64,000 nt of DNA from the NCBI GenBank assembly GCA_003643835.1, contig QMKX01000002.1, positions 24,193 to 88,192 of the forward strand, given 5' to 3'. Both the position numbers and the translations under genes were made by a program. Shown in pieces: positions 5,849 through 50,066 of this stretch (positions within the stretch are counted from its first letter, which is position 1; the number at the start of each line of letters is the position of its first letter). Under the pieces are notes generated by a model. The model was given only the letters and a program-made list of their open reading frames with translations. It had not been told where the DNA came from and searched no databases. This DNA comes from Campylobacterota bacterium (GTDB lineage: Bacteria > Campylobacterota > Campylobacteria > Campylobacterales > Arcobacteraceae).

Positions 5849-7299
5849 ATGTTTGAACAAATTTTTAAAAATATAGATGATATACTTCACAAAGATGCAG
5901 GGTGTTCAAGTGAGCTTGACTATATAGAACAAACTTCGTGGATGTTGTTTTTGAAATATCTTGATGACATAGAACAAGAAAATGAAACATCTGCACTATT
6001 GTCTGGCAAAACTTATCAAAAAATCATACAACCACAATACAGATGGGCAAACTGGGCTACACCCAAGTTAAAAGATGGCAAGATAGACTACAATGCCATG
6101 ACAGGACAACAACTTTTGGAGTTTGTAGACAATAAACTTTTTCTATATTTGAAAAAGTTTAAAGACACAGCGACAAGTGTGGACACGATAGAGTATAAAA
6201 TTGGCGAGATATTTAGTGAGCTTAAAAATAAAATACAAAGCGGATACAATATAAAAGAGATAGCCATCATGATAGATGAGTTGCAGTTTAAAACACAAAA
6301 AGACAAACACGAGATGAGCCATCTGTATGAAAGCAAGATCAAAAACATGGGCAACGCAGGACGAAATGGTGGAGAGTATTACACTCCACGAGCCCTGATC
6401 AAAACAATCATAAAAGCAATAGGCCCAAAGATTGGCGATACTATATACGATCCAGCAGTTGGTAGTGCTGGATTTTTGGTCGAAGCATACGAATATCTAA
6501 ATACAAAAAATTATCAACCACAGATATAACAGTATTGCAAAAAAGCACTTTTTTTGCTAAAGAGAAAAAATCTTTAGCATATATCATAGCTACTATGAAT
6601 ATGATATTTCATGGTATTAAAGCCCCAAATATAGTTCATACAAACACACTAACAGAAAATCTCAACGATATACAAGAGAAAGACAGACACGATATAATTT
6701 TAGCAAACCCACCATTTGGTGGCAAAGAGAGAGCCCAAGTACAACAAAACTTTCCTATAAAAACTGGTGAGACTGCTTCGCTTTTTTTGCAACATTTTAT
6801 CAAAATCCTCAAAACAGGTGGCAAAGCAGGAGTTGTCATCAAAAATACTTTTTTGAGCAATACAGACAATGCTTCTATAGCTTTGCGAAAAGAACTATTA
6901 AACTCATGCAATCTACACACAATCTTAGATATGCCATCTGGCACATTTACAGGAGCTGGTGTCAAAACTGTTGTGCTGTTTTTCAAAAAAGGCAAACCCA
7001 CGAAAAATATTTGGTTTTATCAACTAAATTTAGATAGAAATCTTGGCAAGACCAACCCATTGAATACTAACGATTTAAGCGAATTTTTAAAATTGCAAAA
7101 AACCCAAAAAACAAGCCCAAACTCATGGGTATTTGATATAAAAAATATAGATCAAGAAACCTATGACTTGTCTGCCAAAAACCCAAATACACCAACAGAA
7201 CCACCATTGCGAAAACCTGCCGAAATATTAGAAAATATGACAAAATTGGATCAAAAAAGTGCAAGTATTTTAAAAGAAATTAAGGGTTTATTGTCGTGA
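5849..7299 (+). pseudogene. hsdM: Type I R-M methyltransferase HsdM, split by a -1 frameshift at an A6 tract (two ORFs, 5828-6529 and 6535-7299)
   Basis: The N half carries the HsdM_N-like WMLFLKYLDD and motif I DPAVGSAGFL. The C half carries motif IV ILANPPFGG. Reading LNTKK-LSTTDITVLQKSTFF is restored if A6 (6505-6510) were A7. Confidence 0.8.
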
Positions 7300-8168
7300 A
7301 AAATGAAATAATTTTATATCAAACCGATAAACTTACTTCACGAATAGAAGTCAAAATAGAAGATGAAACAGTCTGGCTCACCCAAGACCAGATGGCAACC
7401 TTGTTTGGCAGAAATAGAGTAGCTATCACTCAACATATCGGCAATATTTTCAAAGAGGTAGAACTTGACCCAAAAGTGGTTAGTAAGGATTTCTTACTAA
7501 CCACTCCACACGGTGCTATAAAGGGCAAAACTCAAACCATAAAAATGAAAATATACAATCTTGATGTAATAATATCTGTAGGATACAGGGTCAAATCCAA
7601 ACAAGGCACACAATTTAGAATTTGGGCTAATAGAATACTCAAAGATTATCTACTCAAAGGTTATTCTCTAAACAACAGAATGAATCGTATAGAAGACAAT
7701 CTACAAAACCTATCAACAAAAGTAGATGGAATAGATTTGCAGATAAATGCAAGTTTGCCACCAAATCAGGATATATTTTTTCAAGGTCAAATTTTTGATG
7801 CTTATACTTTTGTATCCGATTTAATAAAAACAGCAAAAACTTCAATCATGTTGATAGATAATTATATTGATGATAGTGTGTTAACACATTTTTCTAAACG
7901 AAATAAAGATGTGAATCTTATCATGCTTATTAAAAACATATCAAAGCAATTAAACTTAGATATAAAAAAACACAACGAGCAGTATCCTGTCGTAGTAGCA
8001 AAAGTATTTAAAGACGCTCACGATCGCTTTTTGATAATAGATGAAAAAGAGATTTATCATTTTGGAGCTAGTTTAAAAGACTTAGGCAAAAAATGGTTCG
8101 CATTTTCTAAGATAGATATCTCCTCTGTCAAAATCTTGGATAAATTAAAAGAGGAAGGTTTGGCTTGA
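7296..8168 (+). CDS. R-M-linked protein: RhuM-like N-terminal domain fused to a PLD-like (H-x-R) C-terminal domain
   Basis: N-terminus ETVWLTQDQMATLF...VISVGYRVKSKQGTQFRIWA resembles the RhuM family. C-terminus AHDRFLIIDEKEIYHFGASLKD fits H-x-[KR]-x4-D-x6-G-x-S. GTGA overlap with the hsdM stop and TGATG overlap with the hsdS start. Confidence 0.55.
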   Translation: MKNEIILYQTDKLTSRIEVKIEDETVWLTQDQMATLFGRNRVAITQHIGNIFKEVELDPKVVSKDFLLTTPHGAIKGKTQTIKMKIYNLDVIISVGYRVKSKQGTQFRIWANRILKDYLLKGYSLNNRMNRIEDNLQNLSTKVDGIDLQINASLPPNQDIFFQGQIFDAYTFVSDLIKTAKTSIMLIDNYIDDSVLTHFSKRNKDVNLIMLIKNISKQLNLDIKKHNEQYPVVVAKVFKDAHDRFLIIDEKEIYHFGASLKDLGKKWFAFSKIDISSVKILDKLKEEGLA

Positions 8169-45604: not shown

Positions 45605-45699
45605 GTCTTGTCTGACTTGCCTTTGATATCTATCAAAAACAAGTTAAGACGAGACAAATCGACCACACGGTCACAATCTACACAATATTAAGAAAGTTT

Positions 45700-45708
45700 T
45701 GTTATAAT
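45700..45708 (+). promoter_or_regulatory. Extended -10 promoter element TGtTATAAT upstream of the mod remnant and RT
   Basis: TGTTATAAT lies 42 nt upstream of the ATG at 45750 and is preceded by a T-rich stretch. Confidence 0.4.
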
Positions 45709-45749
45709 CACACCAAAGGCGATATATAGATAAACTCACAGGCAAAAGT

Positions 45750-46332
45750 ATGGACTTAGTAGACGACAACGGACAAAAACTAAAGCAGATTTTCCCAGAA
45801 GTGTTTAGTGAGGGCAAGATAGATTTTAAAAAACTTCGCCAAGAGTTAGGCGAACATATAGACAAAAACCCAAGAGGCGAGCGATACAACACCACATGGA
45901 ACGGCAAAAATATGGATAGAATACAAGCCCATGCACCATCTACAGGGACTTTGCGACCGTGCCAAGAGCAGAGCAAAGAGTGGGACACTACACAAAATCT
46001 ATACATAGAGAGCGACAACAACTTAGAGGTGCTCAAACTACTACAAAAAGGTCAAGATGATAAACGACAAGATAGTAAGATGCATACGATACCAGACAAA
46101 CATATTGCCTATGGATGAGGACGAAGAGGCAAACTTCGCTTTGTTGGCTGTGTGTCTTGATAGTGGCATAGGTTTAGATGTGGTGCATGGTATAGCGAAG
46201 CTCAAAAAAGAGTTTGGAGCCAAAACTATGAGAGTGGTATTTAGAGATAGTTGCTTTGATGATACTGTCGTCAAGACAAATACATATTGTATCTTGAAAG
46301 ACAACGGAGCTGATTGGATAGAGTGTATATGA
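45750..46332 (+). pseudogene. mod: Type III R-M methyltransferase (Mod) remnant: N-terminal ~100 codons, frameshift, large internal deletion, C-terminal ~85 codons
   Basis: N part IFPEVFSEGKIDFKKLRQELG...STGTLRPC...NLYIESDNNLEVLKLLQK. KVKMI follows in the +1 frame, then jumps directly to a Mod C-terminus MRVVFRDSCFDD..KTN..ILKDNGADWIECI*. No DPPY/NPPY catalytic motif or TRD remains. Confidence 0.7.
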
Positions 46333-48005
46333 TGATGGATTTTGAGCAATTAAATCAAAATCTTGTTGAGGAATTAGAATGTATGAATAGAAAAAAAAAC
46401 TATTATTGCTGTCTCAAGGAAATAACACGCCAAGAATTATTTGATGGATTATTAGGTTATGGTTTATTTGCAGATAAAATTCCTCCTTTTCTTACGTCTG
46501 AAAACTTTTTATATTTTTGTAAAGACACTTCTAATACAACTGGTTTTTCAAAAAAAAAGAAAAATTATATTCATTATGAAAGTATGAGAAATATAAATGT
46601 TCCAAGAGTTTTTGCTATTCCAGAACCAGTAGCATATTATTATCAATGTAAAATTTTATCGGATTATTGGGACGATTTACTTAAATATTTTCACGAAAAA
46701 ACTAAACTTCATACTCATAAAGTTAGTAGAATACATATTAGAAAAATTGATGGTGCGTTAGAGATAATGAGTAGTTGTTATGATAATTTATATGATATAG
46801 ATTTAGATGATATAGATTTAGATGATTATCAGTCATCAGTTCAAGACCATCTTTTCGAAATGAACCACACAAACTTTTGTAAAGACGATTATCCTGAACC
46901 TAAATTACTAATTGGAAAAAATTATCTTGTAAAAGCAGATATTTCCAATTATTTTCCTAGTATATACACGCATTCTATACCTTGGGCATTAGTTGGTAAA
47001 AAGGTTGCTAAATTAAAATCAACTCCTTTGTATAGCGGAGAGTGGTTTAATAAAATAGATGAATATACAAGAAAAGTAAAAGAAGATGAAACTCATGGAA
47101 TTCTAATAGGAAGTCATTCATCAAATCTAATTTCAGAAATTATTTTAGTAGCTGTTGATGATGAATTATGGAAAAAGGAATATAAGTATATTAGAAAAGT
47201 AGATGACTATATTTGTTATGTAAACAATCAAGAAGATGCTGAACAGTTTTTAGTTGATTTATCATCCGAATTAAAGAAGTATGGACTAACCCTTAATCAC
47301 AAAAAAACGAAAATTGAAAAATTACCAAAAGCTTCAAGGGAATCTTGGGTAAGAAAACTTAATTCTTTTGTTTTCCCACATAGTGAAGATGATAAGCTAA
47401 AATTAAAAGAAGTTAGAGCATACTTAGATATTGCCCTTGAGTTAATGTTCAACAATAAAGAAAACAGTGCAATTTTAAATTATGCTATTCAAGTTTTATC
47501 AAAGAAACCAATGTCAAAAGGTGCAAAAGAATATTTTACAGATACTGCTCATCATTTAGTAATTCTATATCCCTATCTTATCCCTATACTAGATAAAAAG
47601 ATTTTTGAAATATTTAAAATAGATACAAATCGAATTAAAAGAATTTCACTTGATATTTTTGAGCTTGGAAATAAAAGAAAACTATTTGAAGCTATGAGCT
47701 ATGCTTTATTTTTTAGCTTAAAATACAACTTTTTACTAAAAGAAGAGTTATTTGAGAAAGTTGAATATTCAAATGATACAATTCTACTATTATTAGCATA
47801 CTTGCATGATGAAAAATTTATTAACCATTCCAAAGTAAGAAAAAAATATAAAATCCTTGCAAAATCATTACTATCAGATATAGATGAATACTGGGTTTTT
47901 GTATATGAGGTTTTGAAAAAGAGTGATTTAAAAGACCATTGGAGCATAATGAAAGATAAAAAAGTAAGTTTTTTAAAAGATGACTTTAAAGTTGGTAAAA
48001 AATGA
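46329..48005 (+). CDS. Stand-alone reverse transcriptase, Abi/UG (defence-associated) type
   Basis: RT motifs ADISNYFPSIYTHSIPWAL, HGILIGSHSSNLISEIIL, YIRKVDDYICY and GLTLNHKKTKI. ~200 aa N-terminal and ~230 aa helical C-terminal extensions. ATGA overlaps at both ends. The ORF track starts at TTG 46314. Confidence 0.8.
   Translation: MMMDFEQLNQNLVEELECMNRKKNYYCCLKEITRQELFDGLLGYGLFADKIPPFLTSENFLYFCKDTSNTTGFSKKKKNYIHYESMRNINVPRVFAIPEPVAYYYQCKILSDYWDDLLKYFHEKTKLHTHKVSRIHIRKIDGALEIMSSCYDNLYDIDLDDIDLDDYQSSVQDHLFEMNHTNFCKDDYPEPKLLIGKNYLVKADISNYFPSIYTHSIPWALVGKKVAKLKSTPLYSGEWFNKIDEYTRKVKEDETHGILIGSHSSNLISEIILVAVDDELWKKEYKYIRKVDDYICYVNNQEDAEQFLVDLSSELKKYGLTLNHKKTKIEKLPKASRESWVRKLNSFVFPHSEDDKLKLKEVRAYLDIALELMFNNKENSAILNYAIQVLSKKPMSKGAKEYFTDTAHHLVILYPYLIPILDKKIFEIFKIDTNRIKRISLDIFELGNKRKLFEAMSYALFFSLKYNFLLKEELFEKVEYSNDTILLLLAYLHDEKFINHSKVRKKYKILAKSLLSDIDEYWVFVYEVLKKSDLKDHWSIMKDKKVSFLKDDFKVGKK
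46794..46823 (+). repeat. Perfect 15-nt tandem duplication inside the RT gene (GATATAGATTTAGAT x2)
   Basis: Read directly from the sequence; encodes DIDLD-DIDLD. Confidence 0.9.
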
Positions 48006-48274
48006 AAATACAATTTGAAAGTAATTTAAACTACCAAAATAGTGCTATAAGCTCATTATTAAATATAGTTGAGGGCTTTACAACTATGAAAACCGACTTA
48101 GAAACTGAAAAGCGATCTATGGCTAGGATTTGGAAGCAGAGAGATAAGCAAATAGATAAGGTTCTCGAAAATACTACAGGCATGTATGGGTCTATAAAAG
48201 GTATAGCCGGCAATGCCATAGGAAATGTAAAGGCTCTTGAGTTGCCTTATAGTGATGTCGAGGATGATAAATAA
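48002..48274 (+). pseudogene. Chimeric remnant: type III Res N-terminal stub (~25 codons) fused to a DUF2130-like C-terminal fragment
   Basis: MKIQFESNLNYQNSAISSLLNIVEG resembles type III Res N-termini. EKRSMARIWKQRDKQIDKVLENTTGMYGSIKGIAG resembles the DUF2130 C-terminus. Confidence 0.5.
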
Positions 48275-48276
48275 TA

Positions 48277-48471
48277 ATGAAAATTCAAAATAACAATATC
48301 TTATTAGACAAAGCAATATCCATAATATATAGTGGTATAAAAAAAACAATAAAAGCTATAGTTAGAGATTATAGAAAAAGCCAGTCATTGACCGACCAAT
48401 TCAAATTTGAGCAGTATTTTACACTTAATGAGACGAACACTTTTTATCGTAAATATGAAAGGGCAACCTAA
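48277..48471 (+). CDS. Small hypothetical ORF translationally coupled to the KilA-N gene
   Basis: 64 codons; its stop overlaps the KilA-N start (TAATG). No recognisable motif. Confidence 0.3.
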   Translation: MKIQNNNILLDKAISIIYSGIKKTIKAIVRDYRKSQSLTDQFKFEQYFTLNETNTFYRKYERAT

Positions 48472-49298
48472 TGGCAAAAATAAAAGTTTTAGAGCAAGAT
48501 ATCACAATCATACAGCAAAACAAAGAAGACTATATATCTTTGACTGATATTGCAAATAGTAAAGATGGTGAACAAAGAGCAGCAGATATTATAAAAAATT
48601 GGATTAGAAATAGAGGAACCTTAGAGTTTATAGGTACTTGGGAGAAAATGTATAATTTTGATTTTAAAGTGGTCGAATTTGACCACTTTAAAATGTCTGC
48701 TGGTTTGCCATCTTTTGTATTAAGTCCTGGAAAGTGGATTGAGAAAACAAATGCCAAGGGTCTAATAGTAAAAGCTGGAAGATATGGGGGAACTTATGTG
48801 CATAAAGATATAGCTTTTGAATTTGCATCAGCTATTAACCCTGTATTTAAGCTGTATCTGATCAAAGAGTTTCAAAGGCTAAAAGAAGAGGAACTCAGAC
48901 AGCTCGGTTGGGATATAAAAAGAAATCTCACAAAAATAAATTATAGAATTCATACTAATGCTATCAAAGAAAATCTCATTCCAAAAAGTTTAATACCACA
49001 ACAAATAAGTTTTATATATGCAAGCGAAGCAGATGTTTTAAATGTAGCACTATTTGGAACAACAGCAAAACAATGGAGAGACAACAATCCTAAAAATAAG
49101 GGCAATATAAGAGATGAAGCAAATGTATATCAGCTTGTATGTTTGGCAAATCTAGAGTCGCTAAATGCCCATCTTGTCAGTGAGGGGATGTCTCAATCTA
49201 CAAGAATAGTTAAGCTAAACCAGGTTGCCATATCTCAGATACAAATACTTTTAAAAGATAAAAATATCAAGAAGTTAGATTTGATAGGAAGTGATTAA
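48471..49298 (+). CDS. KilA-N domain-containing protein
   Basis: N-terminus ISLTDIANSK...IKNWIRNRGTLEFIGTWE...GGTYVHKDIAFEFASAINPVFKLYLIKEF matches the KilA-N DNA-binding domain pattern. Confidence 0.7.
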   Translation: MAKIKVLEQDITIIQQNKEDYISLTDIANSKDGEQRAADIIKNWIRNRGTLEFIGTWEKMYNFDFKVVEFDHFKMSAGLPSFVLSPGKWIEKTNAKGLIVKAGRYGGTYVHKDIAFEFASAINPVFKLYLIKEFQRLKEEELRQLGWDIKRNLTKINYRIHTNAIKENLIPKSLIPQQISFIYASEADVLNVALFGTTAKQWRDNNPKNKGNIRDEANVYQLVCLANLESLNAHLVSEGMSQSTRIVKLNQVAISQIQILLKDKNIKKLDLIGSD

Positions 49299-49403
49299 AT
49301 GAAAATACAATTTGAAAGTAGTTTAAAATATAAAAACAATGCCATAATCTCAATATTAAATATATTTAAAGGACAAGAAATATGTCAAAAACAAAAGTCC
49401 TAG
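49299..49403 (+). pseudogene. Second type III Res N-terminal stub (34 codons)
   Basis: MKIQFESSLKYKNNAIISILNIFKGQE then stop. About 80 percent identical at the DNA level to 48002-48076; the first 22 nt are identical. Confidence 0.5.
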
Positions 49404-49411
49404 ATACAACT

Positions 49412-50066
49412 ATGCAAGAGTTTCCAAATTTTGTGATATTTAAGATAAACAAGTCAAAGATAAATATAGATGTGCTTTTTGAAGATGAAACACTGTGGCT
49501 AACACAAAAAAAAGATAGCAGAACTTTTCGAGACAACACCACAAAATATCACCTCTCATCTAAAAAATATCTACAAAGAGCAAGAACTTTTAGAGCATAC
49601 AACTTGTAAGGATTTTTTACAAGTTCAAAAAGAGGGTGACAGACAAGTCAGACGAAAAAGTAAGTATTATGCCCTACAGGCTATCACGGCTGTAGGTTAT
49701 AAAGTAAATTCTCATCGGGCGACAGAGTTTCGAAAATGGGCTACAGGTATATTGAGTGAATATATCATCAAAGGTTTTGCCATGGATGATGAGAGACTGA
49801 AGAGGGTTCATCATTTTGGTATAGATTATTTTGATGAGCAGTTGGAGCGAATACGAGAGATACGATTAAGTGAGAGAATATTTTATCAAAAAATCACAGA
49901 TATTTATGCCTTGAGTGCCTATTATGACAAAAATAGTCTCACAACTCAACAGTTTTGTGCAACTGTTTAGAACAAAATGCATTGGGCAATATGTGGCAAA
50001 ACTGCTGCTGATATAAATTTTGTCCAAGCAGATACTTTTGACAATTTGAAAGAAAATTTTGGTTGA
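49412..50066 (+). pseudogene. RhuM-family gene remnant (frameshift, in-frame stop, 3' truncation)
   Basis: After a +1 shift at A8 (49506-49513) it reads ETLWLTQKK|IAELFETTPQNITSHLKNIYKEQELLEHTTCKDFLQVQKEGDRQVRRKSKYYALQAITAVGYKVNSHRATEFRKWATGILSEYIIKGFAMDDERLK. TAG at 49968-49970 interrupts ATV*NKMHWAICGKTAA, and the sequence ends prematurely. Confidence 0.7.

Follow-up and report, generated by a model that had tools for sequence, protein, structure and literature searches.

A reverse transcriptase gene at the junction of a type III restriction-modification operon

We analyzed a stretch of 64,000 nucleotides (nt) from a member of the Arcobacteraceae (Campylobacterota; assembly GCA_003643835.1, contig QMKX01000002.1, positions 24,193 to 88,192 of the forward strand), referred to below as the window. 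It contains a gene for a reverse transcriptase (RT) that lies between the remnants of the mod and res genes of a type III restriction-modification (R-M) operon. Inspection of the list of open reading frames (ORFs) and of the raw sequence showed that the RT frame is open from 46314 (TTG) or 46329 (ATG) through 48005 and encodes 558 amino acids (aa) from the ATG. This agrees with a first-pass annotation made from the sequence alone, which had described an intact ORF of about 560 codons with four RT palm motifs, all of which were located in the frame. The same annotation had reported ATGA overlaps at both gene boundaries, and these were read directly in the sequence. The RT ATG at 46329-31 shares bases with the TGA at 46330-32 of the upstream 91-codon mod C-terminal frame (letters ATGATGATGG at 46329), and the RT TGA at 48003-05 overlaps the ATG at 48002 of the next ORF (letters AAATGAAAA at 48000). 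The features of the locus are collected in Table 1.

Two A9 tracts noted at first pass within the RT gene are real (46391-46399 and 46550-46558) and are the sole homopolymers of at least 9 nt within the 64 kb, with about 0.28 expected in the RT gene from its composition. Phase variation at these tracts is unsupported, as they are made of AAA lysine codons, their length did not vary among four assemblies, and the corresponding tracts are A7 in a relative (L002) whose RT is 72% identical.

The RT belongs to the DRT4/UG15 clade

The RT is a class 1 UG/Abi reverse transcriptase of the DRT4/UG15 clade, a known and mechanistically studied kind. The PADLOC Drt4 model PDLC02178 matched residues 22-553 over model positions 2-504 of 506 (E=1.1e-194) and four further PADLOC Drt4 models also matched, while matches to Drt6 (3.1e-83), AbiK (1.5e-42) and Abi-P2 were far weaker. 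When compared with solved structures, the single RT sequence matched E. coli DRT4/UG15 at 5e-49, and a profile of 35 relatives matched the DRT4/UG15 structures over nearly the full length at E=1.8e-76. The comparison of profile hidden Markov models across RT families thus returned DRT4 and not group II introns or retrons. PADLOC, NCBIfam and Rfam scans all agreed with the first-pass view of a single-gene defense RT of the UG/Abi kind that is not a retron, group II intron or diversity-generating retroelement (DGR) enzyme. Its statement that the RT could not be assigned to a named group is superseded by the Drt4 match.

Structure prediction also recovered an RT fold. An AlphaFold2 model of the monomer (predicted local distance difference test score, pLDDT, 83; predicted template modeling score, pTM, 0.85) had as its best Foldseek matches DRT4 9vdo_A (template modeling score, TM, 0.81; E=2e-23; 27% identity) and the UG15 crystal structure 9l9s, followed by DRT6, AbiK and Abi-P2. 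The model is all-helical from residue 339 (pLDDT around 90), residues ~335-552 align to the alpha-Rep of E. coli DRT4 (285-506), and the C-terminus is complete relative to the relatives. Of the two regions originally described as flanking the RT domain, the helical C-terminal one therefore stands as the alpha-Rep, whereas the supposedly separate N-terminal one belongs to the DRT4 RT domain itself, as its fingers and the first segment of its palm. Pfam returned RVT_1 alone (residues 192-330), in keeping with the lack of HEPN, primase, protease or nuclease motifs noted earlier in both regions. Since the RT and alpha-Rep of DRT4 account for the full length, an additional HEPN, nuclease, primase or protease domain was rejected.

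Catalytic residues are intact and conserved positions are maintained

Functional residues were mapped through alignments to E. coli DRT4, and their conservation was counted in 116 relatives. E. coli R75, D240/D241, N271 and K274 correspond to R93, D292/D293, N323 and K326, all of which are invariant. D149 and Y337 correspond to D204 (Asp in 115/116) and Y385 (115/116), and N124 to N179 (Asn in 78 of the 116). Of the 151 columns with a conservation of 93% or more in these relatives, the window RT departs at four (L95F, C208Y, I291V and L412I), in each case conservatively; the residue at position 208 is Cys in 110/116. The family median is two departures and the window RT ranks 28 of 116, an unremarkable value which does not indicate decay of the RT.

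The window is 99.98% identical to assemblies L089 and L090 and 99.16% identical to L001, a third strain in which the island is laid out in the same way. Between strains the RT differs at 2 of 1677 nt (1 synonymous, 1 non-synonymous), as low as in core genes, and with two differences the ratio of non-synonymous to synonymous substitution rates (dN/dS) is uninformative. The earlier suggestion of selection on the RT alone is therefore plausible, while dN/dS does not provide a demonstration of it.

An acidic tyrosine-bearing loop adjoins the priming position

E. coli DRT4 primes DNA synthesis from Tyr125, which has been reported to be invariant in 174 DRT4 systems (PMC12783706). In an ungapped profile alignment E. 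coli 'IIMNYED' pairs with 'FEMNHTN' of the window RT, which places H180 at the priming position. This assignment is well anchored because the stretch from 'MN' to 'ADIS' aligns ungapped over 31 protein letters with FEMNHTNFCKDDYPEPKLLIGKNYLVKADIS. Directly upstream of H180, the branch to which the window RT belongs carries an insertion of 25-30 residues that is acidic and composed of LDDI[DE]-like units, with the consensus C-Y-x-D-L-D-D-I-D-L-D-D-Y, in which the tyrosines are near-conserved. The loop is predicted to be disordered (pLDDT <50 over residues 153-172).

We compared loop type with the residue at the priming position in 184 non-identical relatives, using raw counts that ignore kinship. 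The canonical tyrosine was kept in 65/65 proteins with a short 7-residue connector and in only 14/119 with the long loop; it was lost, with replacement by H, F, G or S, only in proteins carrying the inserted acidic Tyr-bearing loop. Maximal Tyr-less clades were fragmented on a neighbor-joining tree, so that besides raw counts only a rough parsimony estimate was used, which gave 16 changes at the priming position on a tree built without the loop region. In Psychrobacter, L078 and L087 have Phe and their sister L080 has retained Tyr. Two proteins whose loop has no tyrosine (P0070 and L013) keep the canonical one. Among the 98 sequences without the canonical tyrosine, 95 have a loop tyrosine, 91 have Y188 and none has neither. 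Y188 as the sole replacement primer is not favored, as it is absent in 7 of these 98.

With His at the canonical position, priming in the window RT would presumably start from Y151, Y155, Y167 or Y188. It is quite possible, and we propose it tentatively, that in a large and mostly Campylobacterota branch of DRT4 the priming site has moved from the palm tyrosine to a tyrosine on the inserted disordered acidic loop. Because the loop is built from a 5-residue (15-nt) repeat, its length and its number of candidate tyrosines can change by replication slippage. The perfect 15-nt tandem duplication annotated at first pass (46794-46808 = 46809-46823) was confirmed, with Tandem Repeats Finder (TRF) reporting 2.7 copies of the unit across 46786-46826, and it lengthens the window loop by one unit (C-Y-D-N-L-Y-DIDLD-DIDLD-D-Y) relative to the nearest relatives (C-Y-D-D-L-D-D-I-E-L-D-D-Y). 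As part of the same tentative proposal, the extra DIDLD unit and the extra Tyr155 may exemplify such a change. Priming from His180 itself, through a P-N bond, seems improbable. Untemplated, protein-primed DNA synthesis in immunity now has a mechanistic model in DRT4, and a large natural branch that is without the supposedly invariant priming tyrosine but has a putatively compensating loop would be a ready-made experiment on how a priming site is chosen and moved.

The host operon has decayed around the RT gene

The mod and res genes had been described as destroyed while the RT frame is intact, and tblastn searches with the proteins of L002, in which both are complete, bear this out. What is left of Mod is aa 3-106 and 553-612, with ~445 codons deleted between the two mod remnants, and what is left of Res is two stubs of at most 30 codons that form a 76-nt direct repeat (84% identity). 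No Res body was found anywhere in the 64-kb window with the L002 Res as query. The window thus encodes neither a full Mod (N6_N4_Mtase) nor a full Res (ResIII helicase and endonuclease); their intact counterparts are those of L002. The ORF starting at 48002, previously called a res stub, is res only for its first 21-25 codons, and its remainder (48065-48268) codes for part of DUF2130. The promoter-like site upstream of mod is, judged by its match to the consensus, the likely source of a transcript reaching the RT.

Table 1 Features of the RT gene and of the surrounding island. Mod and Res of L002 served as references for the remnants.
Feature	Position	Strand	Evidence
Promoter-like site, TACACA-18-TATAAT with TG extension	45679..45708	+	Consensus scan, 10/12 matches, extended -10; ~20 nt before mod start
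Type III mod N-terminal remnant, aa 1-106, start position ATA	45726..46052	+	tblastn, 60% to L002 Mod over aa 3-106 (45732-46052); PADLOC MTase_III 1.9e-32
Type III mod C-terminal remnant, aa 553-617, other frame	46135..46332	+	tblastn, 58% (aa 553-612, 46135-46314); PADLOC MTase_III 564-620 of 621
DRT4/UG15-clade RT, intact, 558 aa, RT fingers/palm and C-terminal alpha-Rep	46329..48005	+	PADLOC, PDB profile, AlphaFold2/Foldseek, conserved columns
Acidic Tyr-bearing loop, Y-DNL-Y-DIDLD-DIDLD-D-Y, codons 151-167	46779..46829	+	TRF, alignments, pLDDT <50
H180, at the position of E. coli priming Tyr125	46866-68	+	Profile alignment
Catalytic residues (predicted), D204 and D292/D293	46938-40; 47202-07	+	Alignment to E. 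coli DRT4
res 5' stub, copy 1, ~21-25 codons, ATG overlapping RT TGA	48002..48075	+	tblastn versus L002 Res N-terminus
DUF2130 remnant, last 68 aa of ~426, in-frame fusion to res stub 1	48065..48274	+	Pfam 2.1e-11; tblastn, 82-87% to L093/L099 cargo
KilA-N gene, intact, abuts res stub 2	48471..49298	+	Pfam 1.7e-22; PADLOC PDC-S22 5.4e-126; 84% full-length to L093 cargo
res 5' stub, copy 2, 30 codons	49299..49388	+	tblastn, 77% to Res aa 1-30
RhuM pseudogene, frameshift near 49506-49528, ends at ~aa 216 of 335	49421..50063	+	tblastn in two frames; Pfam RhuM on 49752-49970

From the arrangement of these remnants, the island at 45.7-50.1 kb reads as a collapsed stack of mod-res cargo cassettes joined at res 5' ends. 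The KilA-N gene is its only other intact gene. A 64-codon ORF (48277-48471) between the DUF2130 remnant and KilA-N matches no family and is absent from the corresponding junction in the metagenome loci L093 and L099. The frameshift of the RhuM pseudogene lies at or near an A8 tract (49506-49513), and a second RhuM-like tblastn match was found elsewhere in the window, at ~7.3-7.8 kb (7293-7817). About 45 differences between the strains, which are 99.2% identical overall, cluster in 49077-49373, i.e. the 3' end of KilA-N and res stub 2. This cluster resembles a tract brought in by recombination where one cassette adjoins another.

Relatives of the RT occur in intact mod-RT-res operons and in other contexts

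Three of the four nearest relatives (72-77% identical) carry the RT intact between the same mod and res genes. In L002, a Mod of 617 aa, the RT and a Res of ~993 aa follow one another with TAATG and overlapping junctions. In the two nearest relatives, L152 and L153, the contigs are short, and at their edges the RT is flanked by the Mod C-terminus on one side and the Res 5' end on the other. The next relative, L151, has another context. These three intact versions support the first-pass proposal that the RT once belonged, with translational coupling, to a mod-RT-res operon. Counting the window, there are four independent cases of type III embedding, all in the nearest subclade.

To define the wider habitat of the family we surveyed 83 loci with an intact RT ORF, made up of most of 80 GTDB genome loci together with five found earlier. 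Type I hsd genes lay within four genes of the RT in 18/83, typically in the order hsdM-hsdS-RT-(SLFN-type ATPase or GmrSD)-hsdR. Other RT genes were found by TIR, RhuM or integrase genes, or alone beside housekeeping genes, and about three quarters of the surveyed relatives had no R-M genes nearby. Only L002 among the 83 was embedded in a type III system. The first-pass question of whether homologues recur between mod and res genes is hence answered positively for the nearest subclade and negatively for the wider family, and type III embedding was rejected as the family's general habitat, type I and stand-alone settings being commoner. For UG/Abi RTs, 'operonization with a type I R-M system' has previously served as a defense signature (10.1101/2021.12.02.470933).

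Several of these loci hold further genes. The type I-nested RT often occurs with a second embedded gene encoding an SLFN/AlbA_2-HATPase_c_4 protein or GmrSD (L003/L010, L065, L044, L050 and L068), and a DUF3644 gene precedes the RT in L003 and L010. In Aliarcobacter L011 and L070, genes for an HD-CE/HATPase_c_3 protein of 954 aa and a TIR_2 protein of 382 aa precede the RT, and the gene boundaries overlap; this layout may represent a different multi-gene arrangement.

The mod-res junction is a cargo slot for defense genes

Both window stubs and L002 share the same first 20 nt of res, beginning ATGAAAATACAATTTGAAAG. Scanning metagenome contigs for exact matches to this res start retrieved 60 loci (L091-L150), in 45 of which a Res ORF starts there. 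Of 25 loci that also showed the Mod C-terminus, one had mod and res adjacent and 24 had 0.5-5.6 kb of cargo between them, in the form of co-oriented and tightly packed genes. Among the 84 ORFs of this cargo are AAA_21/AAA_15 ATPases of PtuA/AriA type (15), DUF2130 (8), Abi_2 (5), PIN (4), RhuM (3), YhcG nuclease (3), SIR2 (2) and KilA-N (2), as well as GmrSD, Fic and HerA. The RT was present in none of the 60 loci. The order DUF2130-KilA-N-res in L093 and L099 is that of the window remnants, and RhuM lies directly before res in L106, L119 and L120.

Embedding of defense genes in type I R-M, BREX, DISARM and Hma systems has been documented (Payne et al. 2024, 10.1101/2024.01.29.577857); the methods of that preprint cover Hma, BREX, DISARM and type I only, and type III is not among the hosts surveyed. 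'Guilt by embedding' is here extended to type III R-M, which widens a known principle and does not overturn current understanding. As the mod-res junction in this type III family almost always holds defense cargo, it could be mined for new systems.

Interpretation of the locus

The locus very probably holds an intact DRT4/UG15-type anti-phage RT that was once mod-res cargo and has been left in a decayed type III R-M operon. Sequence and structure comparisons show the family and fold of the RT, its complete set of catalytic residues, the nesting of the gene in operons of relatives and the decay of the genes around it. Several observations weigh against this interpretation. The mod start codon has been lost (ATA), which makes translational coupling and expression of the RT uncertain. 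The NCBIfam Drt4 equivalog NF041749 matches residues 170-548 only, at 389.2 bits, short of its cutoff of 450. The N-terminal third aligns weakly to E. coli DRT4, with an overall identity of 27%. Tyr238 of the E. coli YIDD box, which stacks on the DNA 3' end, is K290 in the window RT (Asn 101, His 6, Tyr 4 and Lys 3 of 116). Finally, the priming Tyr125 is H180 (His 95, Tyr 18 of 116). On account of the priming position, the YxDD tyrosine and the NCBIfam score below cutoff, the RT is by its sequence a DRT4 variant and not an equivalog.

A rival reading is that the RT is a non-functional relic, open only because operon decay is recent and destined to follow mod and res into pseudogenization. In its favor, all R-M neighbors and two other cargo genes are fragments, coupled translation may have ceased with the loss of the mod start codon, K290, Y208 and H180 are unusual residues, and the strains have diverged too little for dN/dS to be informative. 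We nonetheless consider a relic unlikely. A frame of 558 codons has remained free of stops in DNA that is AT-rich, the catalytic residues are all intact with only conservative departures at conserved columns, and H180 is the normal state of the clade and not a private lesion. In addition, the locus still has the promoter-like site and the short upstream ORF that terminates in the ATGA overlap, and KilA-N of the same island is intact as well.

Less probable still is that the RT depends on the type III enzyme for its function, e.g. as a back-up when a phage inhibits Mod/Res, and is now inert. The tight overlaps with mod and res in four independent loci and the nesting of relatives in type I operons are consistent with such a partnership, for which PrrC with EcoPrrI is a precedent as a guard embedded in an R-M system. 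Most surveyed relatives, however, lack R-M genes in their vicinity, and E. coli DRT4 provides defense by itself, its trigger being a phage single-stranded DNA (ssDNA)-binding protein and not R-M inhibition. The variety of unrelated cargo in the mod-res slot points to a shared location and not to specific partnerships.

There is only a very slight chance that the gene encodes the templated RT of a retroelement (a retron, a group II intron, a DGR or a class 2 DRT) with a missed RNA partner, given that the weak similarity to the NCBIfam models group_II_RT_mat (52 bits) and retron St85 (37 bits) lies far under the cutoffs of 300 and 235, that an Rfam scan of both strands of 43.0-51.5 kb gave no match at E<=1, that the ATGA overlaps on both sides leave no intergenic space for a non-coding RNA (ncRNA), and that the closest structural neighbors are all class 1 untemplated enzymes, with Foldseek matching group II, retron, DGR and class 2 DRT structures only at E ~1e-5 (TM ~0.3 for the first three). 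Single-gene status, i.e. no ncRNA or obligate partner, is supported by the Rfam result, by the overlapping boundaries and by relatives with varied or no neighbors.

The preferred interpretation, a self-sufficient DRT4-type RT that outlasted its host operon, can be framed by what is known of the E. coli enzyme. DRT4 of E. coli is a single-gene abortive-infection system that assembles as a hexamer (a dimer of trimers) and constitutively makes random, untemplated ssDNA primed from Tyr125 (Wang et al. 2025, PMC12783706). Host 3'-5' exonucleases keep this ssDNA harmless until ORF55 of phage T5 shields its 3' end, at which point DRT4 turns lethal; the enzyme requires D149, D240/D241, R75, N124 and K24, and the Y125F mutant is inactive (PMC12783706). 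For UG15, the last 38 residues are required (Mestre et al., 10.1101/2021.12.02.470933). By homology, the activity, defense phenotype and trigger of the window RT would be similar. It would most likely form a hexamer that constantly makes short random untemplated ssDNA from a protein side chain, and host 3'-5' exonucleases would normally clear this DNA. During infection, a phage ssDNA-binding protein would protect the ssDNA, which would accumulate and kill the cell in an abortive infection.

The history of the locus may be reconstructed along similar lines. The RT gene would have arrived as cargo nested between mod and res, where it was probably expressed by co-transcription from the mod promoter and by translational coupling at both ends. 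Later deletions would have erased the bulk of mod and almost the whole of res, joining the locus to other cassette remnants, and the RT, needing no partner, would have stayed intact. The window would thereby show what remains when a host operon decays around a self-sufficient cargo gene.

Comparison with known systems

The closest characterized system is E. coli 12-c8-a DRT4/UG15 (PDB 9vdo, 9vdv, 9l9s and 21ou). Like the window RT, it is a single polypeptide in which an alpha-Rep replaces the thumb, and the window RT shares its overall fold and keeps the Asp triad and the dNTP-binding R, N and K. The window RT differs in having ~30 extra residues, the acidic Tyr loop, just upstream of the priming position, ~20 extra N-terminal residues, a K-V-D-D box with Lys290 for Tyr238, and His180 for Tyr125.

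AbiK, Abi-P2, AbiA and DRT6 are, like DRT4, protein-primed template-independent polymerases with an alpha-Rep, although AbiA additionally carries HEPN. The priming tyrosines of class 1 enzymes differ in place (AbiK Y44, Abi-P2 Y61, AbiA Y298 or Y303 in a flexible linker), and these differing sites in AbiK, Abi-P2 and AbiA are a precedent for a moved priming site.

With respect to its setting, the window RT, a co-oriented defense gene nested in an R-M operon, resembles defense genes embedded in multi-gene systems, namely PrrC in EcoPrrI, TgvAB in the type I R-M system of VPI-2 and the HEC/PDC candidates of Payne et al. 2024. Its relatives between hsdS and hsdR in 18/83 loci are placed like embedded defenses, and the neighboring KilA-N matches the PADLOC embedded candidate PDC-S22. 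Unlike the hosts of PrrC, TgvAB and HEC/PDC, the host operon in the window is a type III mod-res system that has decayed and left its cargo behind.

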